From: Candidatus Stahliibacteriota bacterium
GTDB taxonomy: Bacteria > Hydrothermota > Tepidihabitantia > B3-TA06
Direction of reading: 5' to 3'
Assembly: GCA_004375895.1 (NCBI GenBank)
Contig: SOJW01000068.1
Coordinates: forward strand, 640 to 64,639
DNA length: 64,000 nucleotides
Part shown: piece after piece, positions 2,922 through 62,794 of the stretch
Layout: the number at the start of each line of letters is the position of its first letter
Numbering within the stretch: position 1 is the first letter of the stretch
Program-made: the position numbers and the translations under genes
The notes under the pieces: generated by a model
Databases searched by the model: none
What the model saw: the letters and a program-made list of their open reading frames with translations, nothing else
What the model was told of the DNA's origin: nothing

Positions 2922-4143
2922 AACGAATCGCCTCCACAGGATCGAGCCTTGAGGCACGTCTGGCAGGATAGAGCGTGGCAAGGAAGGTTATAATGACGGC
3001 TGCCACGGCTATCAGGATTACGTCCAACGGTTGAACCTTAACAGGCACCGTATCAATAAACCAGACCTCTGCAGGCAAGCGAATGATCTTGAATCGGTCA
3101 ATGATCCAGGAGACACCAACCCCGAAAACCGTGCCTGAGACGGTGCCAACCACCCCTATCAGCAGACCAAAATAGGTAAAGACGCGCATAACGTCTTTTG
3201 ACTTCATGCCAATCGCCCTTAAGATCCCTATCTCACGGGTCTTGCGCATCACGGTCATGATCAAAGTGCCGATTATGTTGAACGCCGCAACCAGGATAAT
3301 CAACGCAAGCACTATAAAAACGACCACCTTCTGCATCTTCAAGGCGGAAAAGAGGTTCTTGTTCTCCATGAGCCAGTCGATGGGTACGAACGGATAGCCC
3401 AGTTCGTCACGTATCTTCTGGGATACCCTGGTAGAGCGCAGGGGATCTGTAAGCTTCACCTCTACGTTGGTGATGCGATCGCCGTAGCCGAATAACTGCT
3501 GGGCGTTGCGGATGTCAATAAAAACCATCACCATGTTGTAGTCATAGAAACCCGCGTCAAAGATACCGCGAACCACGTGGTGTTTAACTATGGGGATAGG
3601 CCCTACCGGCGTCATGATAACATCCTCGGGTGAGGCGATCAGGACAGTATCACCCACCTTCACGCGCAGGTTATCTGCAAGCTGACGACCTATAACCACC
3701 CCGCGACCCTCGAACGACCACTCCCCTTCCAATGGATAGCGCGGATCGGTAATGCTTGAGGTTCGCGCCAGGAGCTCAGGATCAACCCCGCGCACAAGCA
3801 CACCCTCAGCGCCGTATTTTGACTGAATCAGGGTCTTGCGCATAAGCGCCGGGCCAAATCCAACAACCTCACGCATTTCAGAAAGCTTGGCTGCAACCCG
3901 CTCGTACTCCTCAGGTGTAATGGGATTTGAGTAAAACTTTTGAATAGTTATGTGAGGAGCTACCCCTACGATACGGTCCTTGAGCTCGCCGTTGAAACCG
4001 TTCAAAACAGACAACGCGATTATAAGTGCAGCAACGCCGACGAACACACCGGCTATGGCGATGGTGGAGATCAGGTTGTAGAAACCCTCGCCCCTGCGCC
4101 GCTGGCGTAGATAACGACGAGCAACAAAGAGATTAACGTTCAC
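2914..4143 (-). CDS. Lipoprotein-releasing ABC transporter permease (LolC/E family)
   Basis: GVAALIIALSVLNGF, NLFSALKMQK, VAAFNIIGTLIM..KTREIGILRAIG, LYPARRASRLDPVEAIRYE. Confidence 0.9.
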   Translation of the reverse strand: MNVNLFVARRYLRQRRRGEGFYNLISTIAIAGVFVGVAALIIALSVLNGFNGELKDRIVGVAPHITIQKFYSNPITPEEYERVAAKLSEMREVVGFGPALMRKTLIQSKYGAEGVLVRGVDPELLARTSSITDPRYPLEGEWSFEGRGVVIGRQLADNLRVKVGDTVLIASPEDVIMTPVGPIPIVKHHVVRGIFDAGFYDYNMVMVFIDIRNAQQLFGYGDRITNVEVKLTDPLRSTRVSQKIRDELGYPFVPIDWLMENKNLFSALKMQKVVVFIVLALIILVAAFNIIGTLIMTVMRKTREIGILRAIGMKSKDVMRVFTYFGLLIGVVGTVSGTVFGVGVSWIIDRFKIIRLPAEVWFIDTVPVKVQPLDVILIAVAAVIITFLATLYPARRASRLDPVEAIRYE

Positions 4144-5579
4144 TTTCCCTCTTCTCTAAGCTGCGGAAAGATGATTACGTCGCGGATGGTTGAAGAATCC
4201 GTAAATAGCATTACCATGCGATCTATGCCCAGTCCCAGTCCGCCCGTGGGAGGCATACCCTGCTCAAGGGTCTGGATAAAATCCTCGTCCATCACCGAAA
4301 ACTCCTCATGCCGAGCCACCTGCTCTTCGAACCGCTTGCGCTGCTCTAAAGGATCATTAAGCTCTGAAAAAGCGTTGCCGAATTCAACACCGGCGATCAC
4401 CGGCTCGAACCGCTCGACTAATTGAGGATTATTCCTGTGCACCTTGGCAAGGGGCGAGATAAGCCTGGGGTGATCGGCCACGAACGCCGGGCCGTGGATG
4501 TGATCCTGAATCAACTCGGTAAAGAGCTTATCTAACATCTTGCCGTAAGGGGCCTCATCACCTACTTCGACGTTTTTTTTCTTGCAGATGTTGCGCAATT
4601 CTTTATCGGACAAAGCCAGAGGGTCGGTGCCGATATTCTCCTGCAGGGTCGGCACAAATTCAACCCTCTGCCACGGCTTGCCGAAGTCGAACTCGGCTCC
4701 CATCCAGGTAACGGTGGTTGAACCGGTAAGCTCGGAGGCGAGGAGTCTGAACAGCTCCTCGGTAAGCTTCATCATCTGGAAGTAATCCACGTACGCCTGG
4801 TAAGCCTCAAGCATGGTGAACTCAGGGTTGTGCACCCGGTCCAGCCCCTCGTTGCGGAAGTCCTTGCCTATCTCATAAACCTTCTCGAACCCGCCCACGA
4901 TGAGCCGCTTGAGATAAAGCTCGGTGGCGATTCGCAGAAAGTAGTCGCGGTCAAGCACCCGGTAGTGGGTGCAGAACGGCTCGGCCGCAGCCCCGCCGTA
5001 TAAAGGCTGAAGCATCGGGGTCTCCACCTCAAGGAAGCCGCGCTCATCAAAGAATCGGCGGGTAAGTGCAATCAGCCTGGTGCGGAGCCTGAAGACCTCG
5101 CGCGTCTCCTGATTTACAAGCAGGTCAAGATGACGCTTACGTAGTCGCTGCTCGGTATCCTGAAGCCCGTGAAATTTCTCAGGCAGAGCGGCAAGCGACT
5201 TGGACAAGAGGGTGAACTCCTTGACGTTGACGGTCGGCTCGCCGGTCTTGGTTTTGAAGAGCGTTCCCGATACCCCGACAAAGTCACCAAGGTCAATCAA
5301 TGGGAGGGGGGCGAGGGCTTCGTCCTTGCGGATGTAGAGCTGAATCTTGCCACTCTCATCGTGCAGGTCGAAGAAGATAGTCTTGCCGAAGTCCCGCCGG
5401 GTGCGGAGCCTTCCTGCAACCTTTACCATCGTCTCAGACTCAGAGAGTTTATCGAAATTCGCCAACGCCTCGGCTGCGGTGTGGGTGCGATCGAACTTGT
5501 AAGGATAAGGCTCTATGGCTTTGGAACGCAGCTCCTCCAATTTCCGGATACGATTTTCCCTATCAGGAAGTGAAGACAT
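4140..5579 (-). CDS. lysS: Lysyl-tRNA synthetase, class II
   Basis: EPYPYKF, LSKSLAALPEKFHGL, FLEVETPML, LYLKRLIVGGFEKVYEIGKDFRNEG, GMPPTGGLGLGIDR. Confidence 0.97.
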   Translation of the reverse strand: MSSLPDRENRIRKLEELRSKAIEPYPYKFDRTHTAAEALANFDKLSESETMVKVAGRLRTRRDFGKTIFFDLHDESGKIQLYIRKDEALAPLPLIDLGDFVGVSGTLFKTKTGEPTVNVKEFTLLSKSLAALPEKFHGLQDTEQRLRKRHLDLLVNQETREVFRLRTRLIALTRRFFDERGFLEVETPMLQPLYGGAAAEPFCTHYRVLDRDYFLRIATELYLKRLIVGGFEKVYEIGKDFRNEGLDRVHNPEFTMLEAYQAYVDYFQMMKLTEELFRLLASELTGSTTVTWMGAEFDFGKPWQRVEFVPTLQENIGTDPLALSDKELRNICKKKNVEVGDEAPYGKMLDKLFTELIQDHIHGPAFVADHPRLISPLAKVHRNNPQLVERFEPVIAGVEFGNAFSELNDPLEQRKRFEEQVARHEEFSVMDEDFIQTLEQGMPPTGGLGLGIDRMVMLFTDSSTIRDVIIFPQLREEGK

Positions 5580-5585
5580 ACTTGG

Positions 5586-5613
5586 ATGATAGTCATTGAA
5601 AGCTGTAAGTCAA
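5586..5613 (-). promoter_or_regulatory. Sigma70-type promoter of lysS operon, probably leaderless
   Basis: TTGACT-16 bp-TATCAT, ATG 6 nt downstream, no SD. Confidence 0.7.
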
Positions 5614-5631
5614 CATAATCCCTCTCCCATT

Positions 5632-5661
5632 GCGATCTTTTTGCCCGCGGCAAAAAGGAGC
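5632..5661 (+). repeat. Covarying hairpin element, copy 1
   Basis: GCGATCTTTTTGCC-CGC-GGCAAAAAGGAGC. Confidence 0.8.
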
Positions 5662-5759
5662 ATTAAGGTGAGGGCGTGCGGTCTTTTTGCGAAGCCAAAA
5701 AAACCTCTTGACAAAACACCTCATCTGGTTATCTTTAGGTAAGAGAATTGGAGGTAGAC

Positions 5760-6560
5760 ATGAAACGCTTAGTAGTAAAGAGAGGGTTGATGGTGAGCCT
5801 TGTGATCCTTTTGCTTGCAATCTCAGGTTGTGATCTATTCGAGGGCGTCAACAAGATCGAATACCCCTTCACCTATCGTTTATACGAAACCCCGGGTTCC
5901 CCTGTCTCGCTTATCGTTTCTATTGATTTCTTCGATGAAACCCCTGACTTAAGTGGCGTGGATCATCAATGGGAGCTTCGCGGCGATACGATCTGGATTC
6001 TCCTGAAGGGAAACAACGAGGAAGACGAGGTCTCGGGTTCACACTCCAACACCCTTCCTGTAGACGTAGGAGCCCTGGAGAACGGAAACTACACCCTTCT
6101 TTTCGAAGGCAAAGATGAAGAACAAGACGCCTTCGTGCTTGCGGTAAAAGACAGCATCTACCTGGTGGAAGGGGAAGGCGAGGAGGTGGCTCTGTATTAC
6201 GGGGTGGACACACTGCACCGGCTTTTCGAGAACATGCTGCTGCTGGAGATGGCGTACGACACTTCCCAGGCACCGTACAGTGATTCGCTCAAGGAGGCCC
6301 TCACAGCCCTGGGCGCAGCCGAGACCGCTCTTGAACCGGGCTTCTACTCTATCTTTTCTGTCGATTCACAAGGGGAGGTGTCCGGCAGTAGAGTATCTAA
6401 TCATCCATCGTTTATCACCCACTCAGCGCTTTTTGCATACGATGGAGATACGTTGGAATTAGAAGGTGTCTTCAAAACCTACCAAGATCAATTGGAGTAT
6501 CTGAGTCTACGTATGGGTAATGGATTTGACCTTCACAAGCCTCACATCTTCGGCGAGTAA
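5760..6560 (+). CDS. Hypothetical lipoprotein
   Basis: Signal peptide with lipobox LAISGC, SD GGAGG, promoter TTGACA-16-TATCTT at 5708-5735; no family recognised. Confidence 0.7.
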   Translation: MKRLVVKRGLMVSLVILLLAISGCDLFEGVNKIEYPFTYRLYETPGSPVSLIVSIDFFDETPDLSGVDHQWELRGDTIWILLKGNNEEDEVSGSHSNTLPVDVGALENGNYTLLFEGKDEEQDAFVLAVKDSIYLVEGEGEEVALYYGVDTLHRLFENMLLLEMAYDTSQAPYSDSLKEALTALGAAETALEPGFYSIFSVDSQGEVSGSRVSNHPSFITHSALFAYDGDTLELEGVFKTYQDQLEYLSLRMGNGFDLHKPHIFGE

Positions 6561-49041: not shown

Positions 49042-49767
49042 TTAACTCGTATGTGGAGCCATTAATTTAAAGACCCTTTCAAACCTCTCGCAATCTTTAC
49101 AGTCAGGGTGTCCTTCAGGTGGTTCTATCATATTAACGATTGTTCGGACTTTTTTCAGTATTTCAGGTACTAACTCATCAGGTCTAAGTTGAACACTAAA
49201 CGGCGTTGCTTTAAAGTTCATCCAGAATTCTTCCTGCCCCATGTATTCTTCTACATTGGGTTGTTTAATATCGGTGATTGGCTCAGTGTAGATTAAGGTT
49301 ATAGCAGATACAGGACTAAATCCTATTCGGTTGGCTATATATGCATATATATTCAGCTGAGCATCATACATAGGAAATAATTGATCCTGCTTTGAGGTTG
49401 CCTTAGCAGTCTTATAATCTACGATGTGGTAAGAACCGTCTTCCATTTGGAACATATCATCAGGTGTACCTGAGACAACAATTGAATAGGCTTGGTCTCT
49501 ATACCTAAAAGAGCTGTGATGTAATTTAGCCACGTAAGCCTTTACTTGTCCTATGTCAGGAAACCACGGTGGTAAACTCTGATGATTCTCAAAGTAATAA
49601 TGAACAACCTTTTTCCCGTAGGCGTCTATCGAGTTAAATATTCCAGGGAATGGGCTTTCAAAAGGAAGTTTTCTATCGCAGTGCAATTTTAACCAGTAAC
49701 ATCTAGGGCAGAAATCCGGCAACATTACCTCCCCCAACGCCCGAGATGGAATGACGATATCATTCAT
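49042..49767 (-). CDS. PD-(D/E)XK nuclease, Cas4/AddB-like with four Cys
   Basis: FCPRCYW, GTPDD, IVDYKT, QLNIY, DCKDC. Confidence 0.82.
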   Translation of the reverse strand: MNDIVIPSRALGEVMLPDFCPRCYWLKLHCDRKLPFESPFPGIFNSIDAYGKKVVHYYFENHQSLPPWFPDIGQVKAYVAKLHHSSFRYRDQAYSIVVSGTPDDMFQMEDGSYHIVDYKTAKATSKQDQLFPMYDAQLNIYAYIANRIGFSPVSAITLIYTEPITDIKQPNVEEYMGQEEFWMNFKATPFSVQLRPDELVPEILKKVRTIVNMIEPPEGHPDCKDCERFERVFKLMAPHTS

Positions 49768-50021
49768 TCTTCCTCCTACTTCTTTTCTAACTATACGCCT
49801 TTTTACGCCTCATGTCAAGCCCTAAAATGAACTTCTGTCACCAAGCTGACGCTTGGCTCTTTTCCTTGACTCTCCCCCATCCTTTTACCCCAGACATTCG
49901 CCGTGAGCTATTAGCTGTCAGCCGTAAGCCGCTCCATTTTGCAATTTGATATTTGACTTTTGCATTGGCGACGCAGTCGCACCCTTGACTCTCTCCCCTA
50001 TCTGGTTACAATGACGACTAC

Positions 50022-50360
50022 ATGTTTGAAACGGTGCTTATAATACTCATCGCGGGCGCGGTTGCGATTCTTGCGGCAATGCGTTTTATCGCCGCCGTAA
50101 GAAAGCTGGCCAGCCGCGAGCCCGACACCCGTAACACCCGTAACACCCGTACCCCTTCGGGGCATTCTCATAATTACTCGGAGCTTGCGCTCCGCTCACA
50201 AGGAAATAACACCCGTAACACCCATAACGCCCGTAACACGCATGCGTCCTCCAGACGCTACGACACCCGGCGCCAGGACAAGCCGCCGCTGGTGTTCTGG
50301 GCCGTAGCCTCACCCCTGCTTGCCGCCGCCTGCGTCACCGTTATCCTGCTGATGCTTTAA
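50022..50360 (+). CDS. Two-TM small protein whose loop is largely the 112-bp repeat element
   Basis: Promoter TTGACT-16-TACAAT at 49985-50012; hydrophobic N- and C-termini; TRNTRN loop. Confidence 0.55.
   Translation: MFETVLIILIAGAVAILAAMRFIAAVRKLASREPDTRNTRNTRTPSGHSHNYSELALRSQGNNTRNTHNARNTHASSRRYDTRRQDKPPLVFWAVASPLLAAACVTVILLML
50128..50239 (+). repeat. 112-bp (CCCGTAACA)n-flanked element, copy 2
   Basis: Matches 16748-16859; internal hairpins CCCC-TTC-GGGG and GAGC-TTGC-GCTC. Confidence 0.9.
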
Positions 50361-50407
50361 ACCACCCCAGACGCCTTCGCCACCTTCTCTCAACCGATCC
50401 ATTGTCC

Positions 50408-50643
50408 AATCTTCAATCTGCAATCTTCCAATCTTCAATCCTCCAATCTTCAATCTTCCAATCTTCCAATCTGCAATCTGCCAATCTTCTAATCTTCAAT
50501 CGCGACGCAGTCGCCCCTATTGCTGTTCGCCGTGAGCTGTCAGCCGTGAGCTGTCAGCTGTGAGCTGTCATTTGTCCATCTTTTGTCCATCTTTTGACCA
50601 GCTTTTGACCAGCTTTTGTCCAGCTTATTTTGAGTGTTACGGG
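50408..50643 (+). repeat. Composite repeat block: CAATCTTC(C) run, GCGACGCAGTCGC hairpin, TGAGCTG run, five 11-bp units, GTGTTACGGG
   Basis: Hairpin 50502-50514; TTTGTCCATCT/TTTGACCAGCT x5 at 50571-50626; decamer 50634-50643. Confidence 0.85.
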
Positions 50644-50695
50644 TTGACTTTTACCCCTTCTCGGCATACAATTTAGCTAAAAATTGGAGGAAAAC

Positions 50696-52186
50696 ATGGC
50701 CGAAGAGTACAAGAATTTTATCGGGGGAGAATGGGTTAAGTCCAAGTCAAATAAGACTTTCGAGAATCGCAACCCTGCCGATACCAGTGACCTTGTGGGA
50801 ACGTTTCAGCTTTCTTCACGAGATGACGTAGATGCGGCAGTTACAGCCGCCCAGGCCGCATTTCCAAATTGGCGCGACACCCCGGCCCCGGAGCGCGCGG
50901 ATTATATGTATCGTGTTGCCAATAAGTTACGCGAACGCAAGGAGGAGATTGCGAAGCTCATGACCCGTGAGATGGGCAAGGTGATTGCCGAAACCCGGGG
51001 CGACATGCAGGAAGGCATCGACACCGCCGACTTCGCCGCAGGCGAGGGCCGCCGCATGCACGGCCAAACCGTCCCCTCCGAGCTGCGCAACAAGGCGGCT
51101 TACGTTATCCACAGACCAATGGGCGTGTGGTGGCTGATTACCCCGTGGAACTTCCCCATCGCCATCCCCACCTGGAAGACGTTCCCCGCCATAACCACCG
51201 GTAATACGATAGTTATCAAGCCAGCCACCGACACTCCTGCCTGCACCGCAAAGCTCATGGAGATTCTTGACTCCGCCGGCATCCCCAAGGGCGTTATCAA
51301 CTACGTGACCGGCTCGGGCCGCATTGTGGGCGAACACCTCATCAACCACCCGGACATCAAGGGCATAAGCTTTACCGGTTCGAGTGAGGTCGGTAAGCGG
51401 ATCGCGGAGGTCACCGGCAAGACCCTGAAACGGTGCTCACTAGAGCTGGGCGGCAAGAACGCGCAGATCGTGATGGCGGACGCAAACCTCGAACTGGCGT
51501 TGGACGGCGCTCTGTGGGGCGCGTTCGGAACCACCGGTCAGCGCTGCACCGCGACCTCGAGGATCATTGTGCAGGAAGGCGTGCACGACGAGTTCCTGGC
51601 CGAGCTGGTCAAGCGCGCCAAGGCGCTCAAGGTAGGCAACGGTCTGGACGAGTCGGTCGAGATGGGTCCACTGGTGTCCAAGGCTCAGCAGGAGACCGTG
51701 GCAAGCTACGTGAAGATCGGTCTTGAGGAAGACAAGGCCGAACTGGTCTGCGGCGGACATGCTCTCACCGACGGGGATTGCGCCAAGGGCTTCTTCTTCG
51801 AACCCACGATATTTGATAAGGTTACGCCCGATATGCGCATCGCCCAGGAGGAGATCTTCGGGCCGGTGCTTTCGATTCTTACGGTAAAGAGCCTGGATGA
51901 GGCGATTGAGGTTCTGAACGGCACGGTTTACGGGCTTTCGTCCTCGATTTACACCCAGGACGTGAATTCTGCGATGCGGGCAATTGAGCGCATCGAGGCG
52001 GGCATTACCTACGTGAACGGCCCGACCATCGGCGCTGAGTGCCACCTGCCGTTCGGCGGCGTAAAGGAAACCGGCAACGGACATAGAGAAGGCGGCTGGA
52101 CAGCCTACGAGATCTTCACCGAAATGAAAACCGTCTATATCGACTACAGCGGGAAGTTACAACGAGCTCAGATTGATAATAAATAG
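50696..52186 (+). CDS. NAD(P)-dependent aldehyde dehydrogenase
   Basis: ITPWNFP, IKPA, FTGSSEVG, LELGGKN, GQRCTA, EEIFGPV, PFGG.K..G. Confidence 0.95.
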   Translation: MAEEYKNFIGGEWVKSKSNKTFENRNPADTSDLVGTFQLSSRDDVDAAVTAAQAAFPNWRDTPAPERADYMYRVANKLRERKEEIAKLMTREMGKVIAETRGDMQEGIDTADFAAGEGRRMHGQTVPSELRNKAAYVIHRPMGVWWLITPWNFPIAIPTWKTFPAITTGNTIVIKPATDTPACTAKLMEILDSAGIPKGVINYVTGSGRIVGEHLINHPDIKGISFTGSSEVGKRIAEVTGKTLKRCSLELGGKNAQIVMADANLELALDGALWGAFGTTGQRCTATSRIIVQEGVHDEFLAELVKRAKALKVGNGLDESVEMGPLVSKAQQETVASYVKIGLEEDKAELVCGGHALTDGDCAKGFFFEPTIFDKVTPDMRIAQEEIFGPVLSILTVKSLDEAIEVLNGTVYGLSSSIYTQDVNSAMRAIERIEAGITYVNGPTIGAECHLPFGGVKETGNGHREGGWTAYEIFTEMKTVYIDYSGKLQRAQIDNK

Positions 52187-52240
52187 TCCCCGCCCCCTTT
52201 GTCCCCCTCCACCAAGGAGGGGGATGGAGCGAAGCGACCA

Positions 52241-52269
52241 GCGATCTTTTTGCGTTAGCAAAAAGGAGC
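52241..52269 (+). repeat. Covarying hairpin element, copy 3; homology to copy 5 extends to ~52347
   Basis: GCGATCTTTTTGC-GTTA-GCAAAAAGGAGC. Confidence 0.85.
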
Positions 52270-52422
52270 ATGAAGGCAAGCTGCAAAGAGCGCAAATCGA
52301 TAACAAGTAACGGAATCTATCCGCAGATTTCGCAGATGACGCAGATTTTGAAGGCCGCCCGAAAGGGCGGCCTTTATTATTACCATTACTTGACAACCAA
52401 TAAAAAGAAAATAGTATATGGG

Positions 52423-53577
52423 ATGGATAAACTACACGAAGCTATCAGAAAATTGGCTATCAAGAAGGGTGTAAAGCCTGTACCTATTGAAATTCCAGAT
52501 GAAGCGGAATATATAATATACCTTGTACAAGGATTCTTGGTTGAGGCTCCCCAGTTCTTCAGCCACGAAGAATCCACCAAAGCTATATTATGTAGATTTG
52601 ATCATCTAGAATTCAAAGACAACTCAAATATCAAGGAGAAGATTAAACAAGAATTAGCTTTTTCGTGGATGAAATGGAATAGAATAGACTCTAAGGCTAC
52701 GCTCCAACTCAATGAACCTGTCGTCTTACTGCTTAATCGGGATCGTAATGATCCTGAAAGACGATTGCATACTTATGAATTTGCTCAGCAACTGCTAGAC
52801 TATTTTGCCTTCACTAGCAGACTTGATTTTCATTCTGTTCCATCTCTAACAGAAACAGATTTTATGTCTGGTTTAGCCGCAGGTGTCATTGTTACAAAAA
52901 ACGATGTTAAACCTATTTATCCCCCTAAGGAGAAATTCCCCTTTGCTGTGGTGGAAACTCGAAACTATGACCTTACTGATTACTTGAATGATTCAGAAGT
53001 AATCAAAGCATTCTGGCGAGCCATTCATTGGAGAAGACGCGCCAAATTAACCTCTTCTCTTATTGACAAATTCCTTTTCCTTTGGATATCTTTGGAATCT
53101 ACTTTGCCCGAAGAATGCTACCAGTCAAGTTGTATCGAAAGCAAAGTTGGGGTATTGTGGGGCGAAATTCCTAGAAGACTCCGTTCTCAATTAAGTAAAA
53201 AACAAAGAAAAATCATCCGCAATGTCATCAAAGGACGTAAAACTACAGTCTCCGACATTGCAGCAAAAATTAACCGGAAATGGAGAAACGAAGTTGTTCA
53301 CGTTGGAGAAACTGATTTCGCCTCTGACTCACAAAAAACCCTTGAAATCATTAAGGCCATAAGTACTCTAAACATAATCAACGCAAGATGCTGCCACCTT
53401 CTCACTTTCGCTATCCAAAAGAATGTTTCAACTCTACCAGAGGTCTGGGAAAAAACGGTATTAAATTACATATTTAGAGAAATAGATACAAACTCAGAAT
53501 TCATAACAAGACTCCCAACGGAAAACCTCGACGAAAAACATGTTGAAGCAACATTATTAGAAAACCCTCCTATATAA
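52423..53577 (+). CDS. AT-rich HEPN-domain protein (ApeA-like), leaderless start at 52423
   Basis: DKFLFLWISLE helix and RNEVVH (Rx4H) motif; promoter TTGACA-16-TAGTAT at 52390-52417. Confidence 0.7.
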   Translation: MDKLHEAIRKLAIKKGVKPVPIEIPDEAEYIIYLVQGFLVEAPQFFSHEESTKAILCRFDHLEFKDNSNIKEKIKQELAFSWMKWNRIDSKATLQLNEPVVLLLNRDRNDPERRLHTYEFAQQLLDYFAFTSRLDFHSVPSLTETDFMSGLAAGVIVTKNDVKPIYPPKEKFPFAVVETRNYDLTDYLNDSEVIKAFWRAIHWRRRAKLTSSLIDKFLFLWISLESTLPEECYQSSCIESKVGVLWGEIPRRLRSQLSKKQRKIIRNVIKGRKTTVSDIAAKINRKWRNEVVHVGETDFASDSQKTLEIIKAISTLNIINARCCHLLTFAIQKNVSTLPEVWEKTVLNYIFREIDTNSEFITRLPTENLDEKHVEATLLENPPI

Positions 53578-53596
53578 AGCTCTATCTACATACTTT

Positions 53597-53626
53597 GCGA
53601 TCTTTTTCGTGAAACGAAAAAGGAGC
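53597..53626 (+). repeat. Covarying hairpin element, copy 4
   Basis: GCGATCTTTTTCGT-GAA-ACGAAAAAGGAGC. Confidence 0.85.
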
Positions 53627-53634
53627 GTCAAGAA

Positions 53635-53662
53635 ACTATACTCCTCCCCTGCCCTATGTCAA
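53635..53662 (-). promoter_or_regulatory. Promoter-like sequence facing antisense into the HEPN gene
   Basis: TTGACA-16-TATAGT with no co-directional gene downstream. Confidence 0.55.
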
Positions 53663-53779
53663 GTGTTAGGCAAGGGGTTTAAGTGACGCTCCTCGCAACG
53701 AGGCGTTCGTTGCACTCCATAGACCTCTCACCCCTCCCCCTATCCCCCTCCACCAAGGGAGGGGGATATAATCTGCGGT

Positions 53780-53968
53780 TTATTCTTCCCTGTGTTTGTC
53801 GGCAATCAGTTCGCCGTTAGCACCCACGTTCTCCGGCGGGTTCTCGCGAATCAATACTGTGATGTGCTCGATCTCGTAAATCTTGACCGCGACATCAGTT
53901 AGTTCTTTGACCAGCCGCCTTTTCTTCTCGATATCAATCGGCGGGCCGTCTATCTGGATTAAAGGCAT
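53780..53968 (-). CDS. 4-oxalocrotonate tautomerase family protein
   Basis: Pro-1 (MPLIQI), KKRRLVKELT, ENPPENVG. Confidence 0.9.
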   Translation of the reverse strand: MPLIQIDGPPIDIEKKRRLVKELTDVAVKIYEIEHITVLIRENPPENVGANGELIADKHREE

Positions 53969-54109
53969 CTATCCTCCTTCGTGTTTATTGAATATACCCT
54001 TAGATACTTTTTTGTCAAGGGGTTACTTGAAAAGAACCAGCTTCTGGACACGGCAAAGACCTCAAGGATGGACGCTTCTTGCAATCTTAGTCCAAGATCT
54101 GTCAGTCCA

Positions 54110-54661
54110 TTAACCGCTATAAAGCTCCTTGAATCTTTCCCTGGAGAGTTCCATCATCTCGTGGCCTTGCCAAGCCTCCAGGCCGGTTAGCAAAAACCCC
54201 GCCTTCTCGTATACCCGGAACGCCGGAGGGTTATCCTTATGAGGGGGAACGACTAAGAGCTCACAGGAGGTTTTGGCAAATATAAGCTCTACGATCATCC
54301 GCATCCCTTGAGTCCCTATGCCCTGTCCCCAATACCCGGACAGGAGTTTGATGTCGGTCATAAAGCATCTCACACCTTCGGGCCTGCGCCAGTCGCCGAC
54401 CGCAAAGCCTTCAGGCACAGGGCCGTAGTGCGACTCACCTATACGGGTGCCGTCTTCTAGTGAGACGATAAGCTGGGTGTCGTCGCCTGCGGTTTTCTTG
54501 TGTTCGGCAAGATACTCCTGCCACCAGCGCCGGATGTCGGCATCTAACCAGCACCTGCCTTCGGGGTAGCCCGCGTACCGCATCACCCCGGGGTCGTTCC
54601 ACATCCCGAGCAGGAAACCGAGGTCCTCTTCTCGCGCTTCGGTAAGCAACAGTTCTTTCAT
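54110..54661 (-). CDS. GNAT acetyltransferase (RimJ/RimL-like)
   Basis: YWGQGIGT, N.PAFRVYEKAGF. Confidence 0.88.
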   Translation of the reverse strand: MKELLLTEAREEDLGFLLGMWNDPGVMRYAGYPEGRCWLDADIRRWWQEYLAEHKKTAGDDTQLIVSLEDGTRIGESHYGPVPEGFAVGDWRRPEGVRCFMTDIKLLSGYWGQGIGTQGMRMIVELIFAKTSCELLVVPPHKDNPPAFRVYEKAGFLLTGLEAWQGHEMMELSRERFKELYSG

Positions 54662-61436: not shown

Positions 61437-61842
61437 CCTCCCTCCCTTGCAAACCCAACAAGCTGAGATTTGCGTCTTCCTTCTTGAAATCCTGCTTCAT
61501 AGTTAATCTCCATGAATTTGAAACTTACGAAGTTCCTATTAACAATACTCCTTGGCAATTAATTGTCAAGCTAAGCCGACCCTCAAACGGTTGCAAAACA
61601 ATTCGAGAGAAGCATTTAAAATCTGCAGATTGAACCTCGTTTCACTCATTTCCCTTCGGTAGAACTCCTTGCAGTCGTTCTCCTTCGGAACGCAGATTTC
61701 GCGGATTAAGAAGGGGCGACAGCCCCTTCTTCCATTACTACCTCCCCCTTGACGGGGGAGGATAAAGGAGGGGGTGATTCATAGGTTTCACCCTCCCCCT
61801 ACCCCCTCCCGTCAAGGGAGGGGTAATTGGGGCGAAGCCCCT

Positions 61843-61872
61843 GCAATCTTTTTACCGAGGGTGAAAAGGAGC
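61843..61872 (+). repeat. Covarying hairpin element, copy 5
   Basis: GCAATCTTTTTACC-GAG-GGTGAAAAGGAGC. Confidence 0.75.
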
Positions 61873-62132
61873 ATTGAGGCAAGCTGCAAAGGGCGCAGAT
61901 AGATAATAAATAGGATTTTATCCGCAGATTGACTTCGTCGCAAGCGTTCGCAGATGACGCGGATTAGGTTGATCCCTCCGTCCGCTCCTTTGGAGCGGCC
62001 ACCTCCCTTACGCAAAGCGGCAGGATTGCCAAAAGGGAGGCAACCTTAAACGTCTCCCTTACCAAGTGAGAATCAAAGAGGGATCAAATGTCCCACTTAT
62101 TAAGGGGGAACTAAAGGGGGATCAGATTAAAC

Positions 62133-62167: not shown

Positions 62168-62794
62168 TCATTTCCAACGTTCGAGTTTTGCTTTTGAATT
62201 GTGCTTTAGTAGAGTGATGTTATGTTCCTTGCAGGCGTTCTCTGCCACACTCTCAATGTCCTCATTCTGTATCCAATAATAGTCATCAAACAGTATGAAA
62301 ACTACCCTTTCGGATATTTCTAGGTCTCTAATAGTCACCAATCTTTTAAGGTCCTTCTCAATGTCTTTCTGCGGAATTCTGTAATATCGACCGACTGCAT
62401 AGTGGAAAAATTTTGCCTCAGCACATAATAAGAACCTTTCCGGGCTGTCTTCCTGAGCTATTATTAAATCTACTTCCGGCACTTTTCCAAGTTCTTTTTC
62501 TAGGACTTCTAATTTATCTCTAAATGTGTAACCTGGAAAATTAGAGTCTTTTAGATTAACATTAATGTGCATTTCAATACCCGACAGTGAGTGATTAGCT
62601 AATTGGTCATAGAAGAACCTACCAAGTTGCACCATCAAATCGTATTCATTCCATAATATCCAGTGCTCCGTCTTAGCCTTTTCTTCATCTTCTCTGCCTA
62701 GAGACTCAGAATATTCGCGCACCCTTTTATCGTAATCGTTACGAAATGCATCCCATGCCTTTTCGAGTAGCTCTTCTGCGTTGATGTCAGGCAT
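62168..62794 (-). CDS. AT-rich hypothetical protein, PD-(D/E)XK-like
   Basis: EYDL..QL, VPEVDLII...CAEAK motif; SD AAGGAGG; promoter TTGATA-16-TATAAT at 62889-62916. Confidence 0.65.
   Translation of the reverse strand: MPDINAEELLEKAWDAFRNDYDKRVREYSESLGREDEEKAKTEHWILWNEYDLMVQLGRFFYDQLANHSLSGIEMHINVNLKDSNFPGYTFRDKLEVLEKELGKVPEVDLIIAQEDSPERFLLCAEAKFFHYAVGRYYRIPQKDIEKDLKRLVTIRDLEISERVVFILFDDYYWIQNEDIESVAENACKEHNITLLKHNSKAKLERWK

Follow-up and report, generated by a model that had tools for sequence, protein, structure and literature searches.

A putative ApeA-like HEPN gene between two copies of a dispersed REP-like hairpin in a Candidatus Stahliibacteriota genome: probable coincidence of a palindromic repeat with a gene-swapping hotspot

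Introduction

Repetitive extragenic palindromic sequences (REPs) of E. coli stabilise upstream mRNA and can modulate translation near stop codons. In Enterobacteria and Pseudomonas, such repeats, together with bacterial interspersed mosaic elements (BIMEs) and the REP doublets termed REPINs, are dispersed imperfect palindromes, whereas attC sites of integrons are imperfect hairpins that follow exchangeable genes. Defence-island hotspots, in turn, are slots between conserved anchor genes. ApeA is one of the HEPN families listed by Anantharaman et al. 2013 (PMC3710099), and acts as an abortive-infection protein which cleaves tRNA anticodon loops and forms a large ring oligomer (bioRxiv 10.64898/2026.01.26.701840). 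Here, we analysed a stretch of 64,000 nucleotides of a Candidatus Stahliibacteriota bacterium (assembly GCA_004375895.1, contig SOJW01000068.1, positions 640 to 64,639, forward strand), hereafter the window, in which a gene for a putative ApeA-like HEPN protein (52423-53577, plus strand) lies between two copies of a covarying hairpin, copy 3 (52241-52269, plus strand, GCGATCTTTTTGCGTTAGCAAAAAGGAGC) and copy 4 (53597-53626, plus strand, GCGATCTTTTTCGTGAAACGAAAAAGGAGC). We refer to these copies, and to a copy 5 located elsewhere in the window (in a block at 61634-61948), as GCGATC hairpins. A preliminary description of this DNA had proposed that the HEPN gene was a self-contained cassette inserted by recombination at the hairpin. 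Our analysis indicates instead that a REP-like hairpin and a gene-swapping hotspot probably coincide here independently, and that these hairpins do not serve a cassette system as crossover sites.

Results

The genome carrying the window (G000) is a 2.2-Mb metagenome-assembled genome (MAG) of 75 contigs, with a coding fraction of 86% and a G+C content (GC) of 0.53; the contig of the window is labelled C57. The gene preceding hairpin 3 is aldH, an aldehyde dehydrogenase gene (50684-52186, plus strand, 500-aa open reading frame (ORF)), and we fetched the flanks of its orthologues for synteny comparison among relatives. Orthologues were present in every congener but G002, and in three sister-genus genomes as well, with 84-95% identity in seven same-family relatives. 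The gene order from aldH to the 4-oxalocrotonate tautomerase-family gene (53780-53968, minus strand, assigned by Pfam), followed by GNAT and LPG-synthase-C genes, was retained in G001 and G004, while the gene in the gap differed in each. The gap was occupied in G001 by a 213-aa opposite-strand gene, 68% identical to the window ORF at 62168-62794, and in G004 by a 169-aa opposite-strand gene. Other genes, of 328 and 186 aa, were found beside aldH in G005 and G003, respectively. All these four passengers were AT-rich (GC 0.39-0.45), and none matched any family in a Pfam search. The gap between aldH, its conserved left anchor, and the tautomerase gene, its right anchor, is a hotspot, in which every species that we examined has an AT-rich orphan gene of a different kind. 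The window ORF at 62168-62794 is itself an AT-rich gene (208 aa, minus strand) enclosed by REPs of the GTAG type, and its 68%-identical homologue lies at 2279-2920 of locus L021 in G001. Since this homologue occupies the aldH-tautomerase slot of G001, one passenger family is found in different slots in two species.

The borders of the variable segment were determined from the same alignments. G000 and G004 were collinear from aldH across hairpin 3, and across a relic duplicate of the last 11 aldH codons with the stop (GKLQRAQIDNK plus stop; 52275-52310, plus strand, 36 nt), up to 52336, which is 67 nt beyond the hairpin. The alignment of G000 with G001 reached 52354. Tandem repeats of 9 nt, CGCAGAT(T), lie at 52322-52353 (plus strand), where the homology with G004 and G001 stops. 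On the right side, homology restarted at 53635, both with G005 (96% over 50 nt) and with G003 (83%), and this restart point is a promoter-like site, TTGACA-16-TATAGT (53635-53662, minus strand, 11/12 consensus matches), which is situated directly upstream of the passengers of G005 and G003. As homology ends at 52336 and restarts at 53635, a genome-specific segment of about 1.3 kb (52337-53634), without counterpart at this locus in the relatives, was delimited. Hairpin 3 is shared with G004, lies outside the segment, and is an old resident of the aldH 3' flank. Hairpin 4 lies within the segment, 8 nt from its right edge. None of the passengers at the slot in G001, G004, G005 and G003 was followed by a hairpin of the GCGATC family. 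GTAG REPs adjoined the passengers in G001 and G005. In G005, the orthologue of hairpin 3, preceded by the same linker, was interrupted by an insertion of 33 nt, and a nearly identical insertion interrupted a hairpin located further downstream in G001. The preliminary description had looked for support to relatives with an empty site of one hairpin or with a different passenger: a different passenger with one hairpin was indeed found, but the second hairpin followed none of these passengers, and a cassette defined by the two hairpins is not borne out, as hairpin 3 and its flank are common to G004, which carries another passenger.

The GCGATC hairpin is a repeat dispersed over the genome. A fuzzy search of the assembly of G000 detected 165 loose copies. 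Strict copies, in which the conserved arms had no more than one mismatch, numbered 116, and 112 of them were intergenic. With some 116-165 copies in the genome, the presence of two hairpins around one gene is not unusual by itself. The hairpin is 29-34 nt long and consists of conserved arms (GCGATCTTTT / AAAAGGAGC), a variable 4-bp stem and a loop that is often G-N-A, with the consensus of the commonest length class being T-[G/C]-C-G-A-T-C-TTTT-NN-CC-GNA-GG-NN-AAAA-G-G-A-G-[C/G]-A. We counted base pairs in 58 distinct copies, over three outer pairs, tandem G.A/A.G, one bulged T, nine inner pairs and a triloop. Stem cells were paired in 97.7% of cases as compared to 81% in shuffles, and changes on both sides of a pair were seen in 111 cells as compared to 32.9 +/- 5.4 in shuffles (0/500 shuffles reached the observed value), while the slid controls collapsed. 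The second outer pair also covaried, being G-C in 47 and C-G in 10 of the 58 distinct copies (103 and 11, respectively, among the strict copies). The pair counts together with the shuffles and slid controls thus confirmed that the covarying hairpin is real and well defined. Copies 3 and 4 themselves differ in their inner stems (GC/GC in one copy, CG/CG in the other) with the pairing kept in both, and fold better than shuffles whether taken as DNA or RNA (z about -3.2 to -3.6); chance occurrences of the pattern expected in the window are 0.

The named genomes that matched the hairpin were MAGs of candidate division WOR-3 / Candidatus Stahlbacteria. Counts of the exact pattern were 111 in G000, 101-133 in four congeners and 10 in a fifth congener, and 6-37 in two sister genera; none was found in the fourth genus of the family, and 0-1 in other families of the class. 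A reversed-pattern control gave 0-1. The copies showed no orientation bias relative to their neighbouring genes (in co-directional gaps, 31 were same/same and 32 opposite/opposite) or to the local GC skew (P=0.85). Inverted doublets were common: at a spacing of less than 400 nt, 12 were (-,+) as against 0 (+,-), and 3 were direct. The (-,+) doublets were frequent at a spacing of 40-220 nt. An opposite-strand stop codon lay within 10 nt of the GGAGC end of the hairpin in 19 of 60 cases, whereas the opposite end had one this close in 2 of 59 (P=5.5e-5). Where the GGAGC(A) end abuts such a stop codon, GGAGCATTA is the reverse complement of TAATGCTCC. In addition, CGGGGTCCCC often occurs 8-10 nt after the hairpin in G000.

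A scan of 49500-54500 against Rfam (E<=1) revealed no family for the hairpin. Four matches to the Y1 transposase (PF01797), which resemble REP-associated tyrosine transposases (RAYTs), were detected in G000. The clearest of them (C32:5854-6336) has inverted GTAG-GGGCCGACC REPs on both sides, with a GCGATC hairpin outside them, and the other three were not adjoined by any strict hairpin copy. The larger unit at C32:5782-6375 comprises this 160-aa RAYT-like gene with its REPs, and the same type of GTAG REP borders AT-rich passengers in G001, G004 and G005. From its copy number, intergenic placement, lineage restriction and doublets, the element therefore behaves like a REP-type repeat. The hairpin is a REP-like palindromic repeat of one WOR-3 (Stahlbacteria) family, with an architecture of its own and no identified partner enzyme. 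Four other readings of the hairpin were considered and set aside. A replication-strand bias of the IS200/IS605 kind was not seen against GC skew; a kink-turn in the outer stem was rejected on inspection, there being no 3-nt bulge ahead of the G.A pairs; sequestration of a Shine-Dalgarno sequence, or an RNA thermometer, was rejected as start codons do not lie at a consistent distance downstream; and an intrinsic terminator was rejected because, whichever strand is read, the T-run precedes the stem and the A-run follows it.

The bracketing of single genes by hairpins was at chance level. Simple arithmetic from 116 copies in about 1970 intergenic gaps gave approximately 6 single-gene brackets, and 7 were seen, three of them direct. 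Consecutive hairpins of G000 at 400-3000 nt from one another formed 4 direct as against 7 inverted pairs. G001 also has the gene enclosed by the direct pair on C67, the two inner stems being the same and the spacing 1009 versus 1010 nt, and the gene within the direct pair on C66 was conserved in G001 and G004 with 88-91% DNA identity. A role of hairpin pairs as cassette borders, as had been suggested, is not supported: two of the three other direct pairs enclose conserved genes. We also compared the hairpins with AT-rich islands, defined as 500-nt windows below 42% GC, of which G000 has 99. A hairpin lay near an edge of 9 of them, as compared to 6.0 +/- 2.3 by random placement, and the HEPN island was the only one with a hairpin at both edges. 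In G001, three identical direct hairpins gave the impression of a 'cassette array', which was discarded as a candidate, since these represent the shared 3' ends of three tandem paralogues. Separately, at C14:40982-42318, two direct copies of a composite repeat of about 150 bp (two GCGATC hairpins around a GGGGTYCCC element) surround two small membrane-protein genes, possibly paralogues, an arrangement that resembles a segmental duplication.

When 81 related genomes were searched by profile for the HEPN protein, one real homologue was retrieved, encoded by G004 (E=4.6e-70, 36% identity over the full length). Its gene (G004:C80:22478-23650; 4979-6151 of locus L085) is on another contig and at another locus than the aldH slot, in an island with GC of 0.39-0.42 against a background of 0.56. 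It has a TTGACA-17-TATAGT site of its own and a GTAG REP doublet downstream, and the nearest GCGATC hairpins are 1.8 kb away, past another gene. At the orthologous place in G000 (C51:38591-39585), an unrelated AT-rich orphan gene of 257 aa (MIKKSVFMVMPFEDKNAQEIY...) was present, and a GTAG REP doublet marked the right border in both genomes. These two places (G004:C80 / G000:C51) are a second single-gene hotspot. As the G004 homologue lies elsewhere and without a nearby hairpin, the gene family moves between slots without the GCGATC hairpin. The preliminary description had also ranked the locus as its best candidate for an undescribed cassette system, a view with which neither this homologue nor the lack of enrichment of flanking hairpins at AT-rich islands agrees.

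The protein encoded at 52423-53577 (384 aa, TAA stop at 53575-53577) carries the R-x4-H motif as R288-N-E-V-V-H293 (53284-53301). A word-indexed homologue search retrieved the protein itself as the sole match, whereas an exhaustive search among 1.8 billion proteins found 19 representatives at E<=1e-3, most of them of 350-390 aa; one homologue is on a contig with a GmrSD restriction gene. R288 and H293 were invariant in 19/19 family members, as were W203, R205 and W221, while E225 and G295 were nearly so. When the family profile was compared with solved structures, only ApeA proteins matched, namely Ec2ApeA (E=1.9e-4) and Ec1 and Ec3 (about 1e-3), the PDB entries being 9hxb, 9hxd, 9hxi, 9hxn and 9hxj (E=1.9e-4 to 1.2e-3). 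Two motifs aligned, 'KFlfyWiALES' with 'LLNLWIAIES', and 'yRlRneivHdG' with 'YRTRNLIVHTG'. The protein alone gave a sub-threshold match to MauJ only, when compared with Pfam and PADLOC. An AlphaFold2 (AF2) model built with the alignment reached a predicted local distance difference test (pLDDT) score of 80.7, as compared to 35.6 from the single sequence, and comprised an N-terminal domain (about 190 aa) of mixed alpha/beta structure and a helical C-terminal half. The protein is probably a HEPN protein that is 'ApeA-like' and not ApeA proper, with a probable RNase or defence role, and it may act through R288/H293 as an infection-triggered or toxin-type RNase. The HEPN identity, with mention of ApeA, had been put forward in the preliminary description, and it is upheld by the match of the family profile to solved ApeA (E=2e-4) and the alignment of both motifs.

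The remaining features of the locus had likewise been recognised correctly in that description: both hairpins, the 19-nt gap between the TAA stop and hairpin 4, a promoter-like site, the AT-rich gene and the R-x4-H motif were all found in the sequence, and copy 4 has the orientation of copy 3. The GC of the HEPN gene is 0.37-0.40 against 0.53 for the genome, a 14-point difference. Ahead of it lies a promoter-like site, TTGACA-16-TAGTAT (52390-52417, plus strand), identified by consensus match alone (10/12). A leaderless start is plausible, because ATG 52423 comes 5 nt after TAGTAT, and the family alignment favoured this start over the upstream ATG at 52270. A GC-rich stem-loop (52350-52375, plus strand; -23.1 kcal/mol, z -5.5), followed by TTTATTATT as a T-rich tail, is the probable terminator of aldH, and G001 has a terminator at the equivalent position. 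A palindrome with C-rich and G-rich halves, CCCCCTCCACCAAGGAGGGGGAT (52203-52225), belongs to a separate dispersed repeat family with many copies in G000, a second copy being at 53730-53767. The minus-strand site at 53635-53662 is directed towards hairpin 4 and, beyond it, into the HEPN gene in antisense; it may be no more than a relic, or it may give rise to antisense RNA; in G005, the passenger ATG follows the -10 box of the equivalent site by about 6 nt. Just upstream of aldH, an AT-rich gene (49042-49767, minus strand) encodes a 241-aa PD-(D/E)XK / Cas4-like nuclease (Pfam PDDEXK_1, E=9.5e-8; PADLOC Cas4, E=4e-8) without CRISPR context, and is likely to be a further acquired gene.

The end of aldH is itself repeated. 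Its last 36 nt occur three times in the window (52151-52186, 52275-52310 and 61878-61913), and both non-functional tails are directly 3' of a GCGATC hairpin, one of them 10 kb from aldH. The relic tail at 52275-52310 is closer to the functional aldH end of G001 than the functional end of the window is. In another genome, G009 (2965-3210 of locus L026), three or four aldH-tail copies were present, and a hairpin lies immediately 5' of at least two of these. It seems that insertion or duplication of the hairpin copies the adjacent target, or that the aldH tail, which holds GCGCAGAT, is a preferred landing site. A non-coding block of 315 bp (61634-61948), absent at the orthologous site of G004 and 87-89% like the aldH flank of G001, contains CGCAGAT repeats, a terminator-like hairpin, two C/G-rich palindromes, hairpin copy 5 and an aldH tail; it seems that a flank rich in repeats was copied to this site from the aldH locus.

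Discussion

We consider it likely that the REP-like hairpin and the gene-swapping hotspot met at this locus independently of each other. Hairpins 3 and 4 would be two members of a dispersed repeat that lies between genes in either orientation, and the gap between aldH and the tautomerase gene would be a slot, filled in this genome by a putative 384-aa distant relative of ApeA with its own predicted promoter. Hairpin 3 would be part of the old aldH flank, and hairpin 4, located at the 3' end of the acquired segment, would have been either imported with it from a related genome or added later. At most, hairpin 4 may provide structure at the 3' end and shield it from the relic promoter that converges on it. 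The preliminary idea of a self-contained cassette thus survives in that the passenger is species-specific, while recombination at the hairpins is not supported.

Several observations weigh against this interpretation. The separation of hairpin 4 from the right edge of the segment is merely 8 nt, and it is there that an attC-like site would lie. The relatives show one hairpin with a different passenger, a pattern that had earlier been counted as support for a cassette. A partner enzyme for the hairpin family was not found among the RAYT genes looked at. As for the passenger, none of the 19 family members matched the HEPN and ApeA models of Pfam and PADLOC at E<=0.01, and Foldseek comparison of the AF2 model with the PDB gave no significant match (best E=0.097). 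As Foldseek, Pfam and PADLOC give no significant match, the HEPN assignment is based on motif-level profile similarity.

The alternative which fares best, though we judge it unlikely, is that the hairpins are gene-boundary elements acting at the RNA level, as 3'-end stabilisers, terminators or insulators that mark transcript limits. The intergenic position of 112 of 116 copies and the proximity of the GGAGC end to opposite-strand stop codons (19/60 versus 2/59, P=5.5e-5) are what such elements would show, the effects of E. coli REPs on mRNA and translation provide a precedent, and hairpin 4 is the sole stable structure after the HEPN stop, facing a converging promoter. Yet the copies have no orientation preference (31 versus 32), despite their asymmetric arms and the G.A pairs, which are confined to one of the two strands, the stem is not followed by a U-tract, and no Rfam family matches. 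Moreover, hairpin 3 follows a duplicated gene tail and precedes the real aldH terminator, and thus marks no transcript end.

Far less probable is a hairpin-terminated cassette, in which the promoter, the HEPN gene and hairpin 4 would form a mobile unit with an attC-like 3' hairpin, inserted at a fixed site beside the conserved minus-strand promoter. The 8-nt distance of hairpin 4 from the right junction fits this proposal, as does the junction abutting a promoter which is conserved in G005 and G003 directly upstream of their passengers, and the conserved arms with a covarying centre recall attC sites. However, no hairpin lies at the left junction, none of this family terminates the passengers of G001, G004, G005 and G003, and downstream of the HEPN homologue in G004 there are GTAG REPs in place of a GCGATC hairpin. 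In addition, 90 of the 99 AT-rich islands have no adjoining hairpin, C57 carries no tyrosine recombinase (the five PF00589 matches of the genome are on C45, C74, C65 and C61), and the hairpin, at 30 nt, is without RYYYAAC/GTTRRRY boxes. We would give an equally slim chance to a broader scheme, in which single AT-rich defence-like genes with their own promoters would be exchanged at fixed intergenic slots by a dedicated mechanism, with palindromic repeats (the GCGATC hairpin and the GTAG REPs) as border or recognition elements, hairpin 4 as the mark of the 3' border and 53635-53662 as a fixed expression platform.

Misjoining of an AT-rich segment into the MAG contig at repeats, as an assembly or binning artefact, is scarcely credible: the 14-point GC difference, borders near repeats and a MAG of 75 contigs would suit it, but the conserved repeat arms of about 10 nt are much shorter than the words used by assemblers, the gene order on either flank is that of G001 and G004, the segment ends in a lineage-specific hairpin, a congener has a homologue, and the genome has 99 comparable AT-rich islands.

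A cassette system, had it held, would have been a notable find, and its non-support spares a false lead. With the independent coincidence of hairpin and hotspot as the preferred explanation, the locus offers a very small, previously unannotated family of short, probably ApeA-like HEPN proteins as a candidate single-gene defence or toxin system; at least two single-gene hotspots in an uncultured phylum, which are compact places to seek new defence genes; and a REP-like repeat having an unusual fixed stem with G.A pairs and a bulge, a freely covarying tip and no known partner enzyme.

Comparison of the putative HEPN protein with ApeA reveals a C-terminal HEPN domain with the same two motifs (a W/L-x-A-[IL]-E-S helix and R-N-x-I-V-H-x-G) in a single-gene system having an N-terminal non-catalytic domain (PDB 9hxb, 9hxn, 9hxj). 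ApeA is, however, about 590-620 aa long as compared to 384 aa here, where the N-terminal domain is far shorter, and the present protein does not match the Pfam HEPN_Apea and PADLOC ApeA models. With integrons, the locus shares a single variable promoter-proximal gene ahead of an imperfect hairpin whose ends are conserved and whose middle covaries, as well as an occupant that varies between relatives. On the other hand, attC sites measure 57-141 nt and have R''-L''...L'-R' boxes, whereas the hairpin here is 29-34 nt long without R''/R' core sites; there is no integrase, attI or array; the hairpin is dispersed genome-wide in both orientations; and other passengers at the slot are without this hairpin, the left junction being away from any.

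The REP/BIME/REPIN elements of Enterobacteria and Pseudomonas resemble the hairpin in being imperfect palindromes, about 30 nt in length and present 100 or more times per genome, almost all intergenic and lineage-restricted, often near gene 3' ends and frequently in inverted doublets (here 12 (-,+) versus 0). The present repeat differs from them in its head, which is (T)GCGATC or (T)CCGATC with no GTAG/CGTC, and in its fixed arms with a tandem G.A mismatch and a bulged T beneath a freely compensating 4-bp apical stem. A cognate RAYT flanked by the same repeats, as for REPINs, was not found in this genome, where the RAYT on C32 has GTAG REPs. Finally, as in the defence-island hotspots of E. coli and Pseudomonas, conserved anchors flank a slot of unrelated AT-rich, mostly orphan genes. 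In contrast to those hotspots, the slots described here are free of integrase or mobile-element genes, and hold single genes of about 1-1.5 kb; it is the slots that are packed with several palindromic repeat families.

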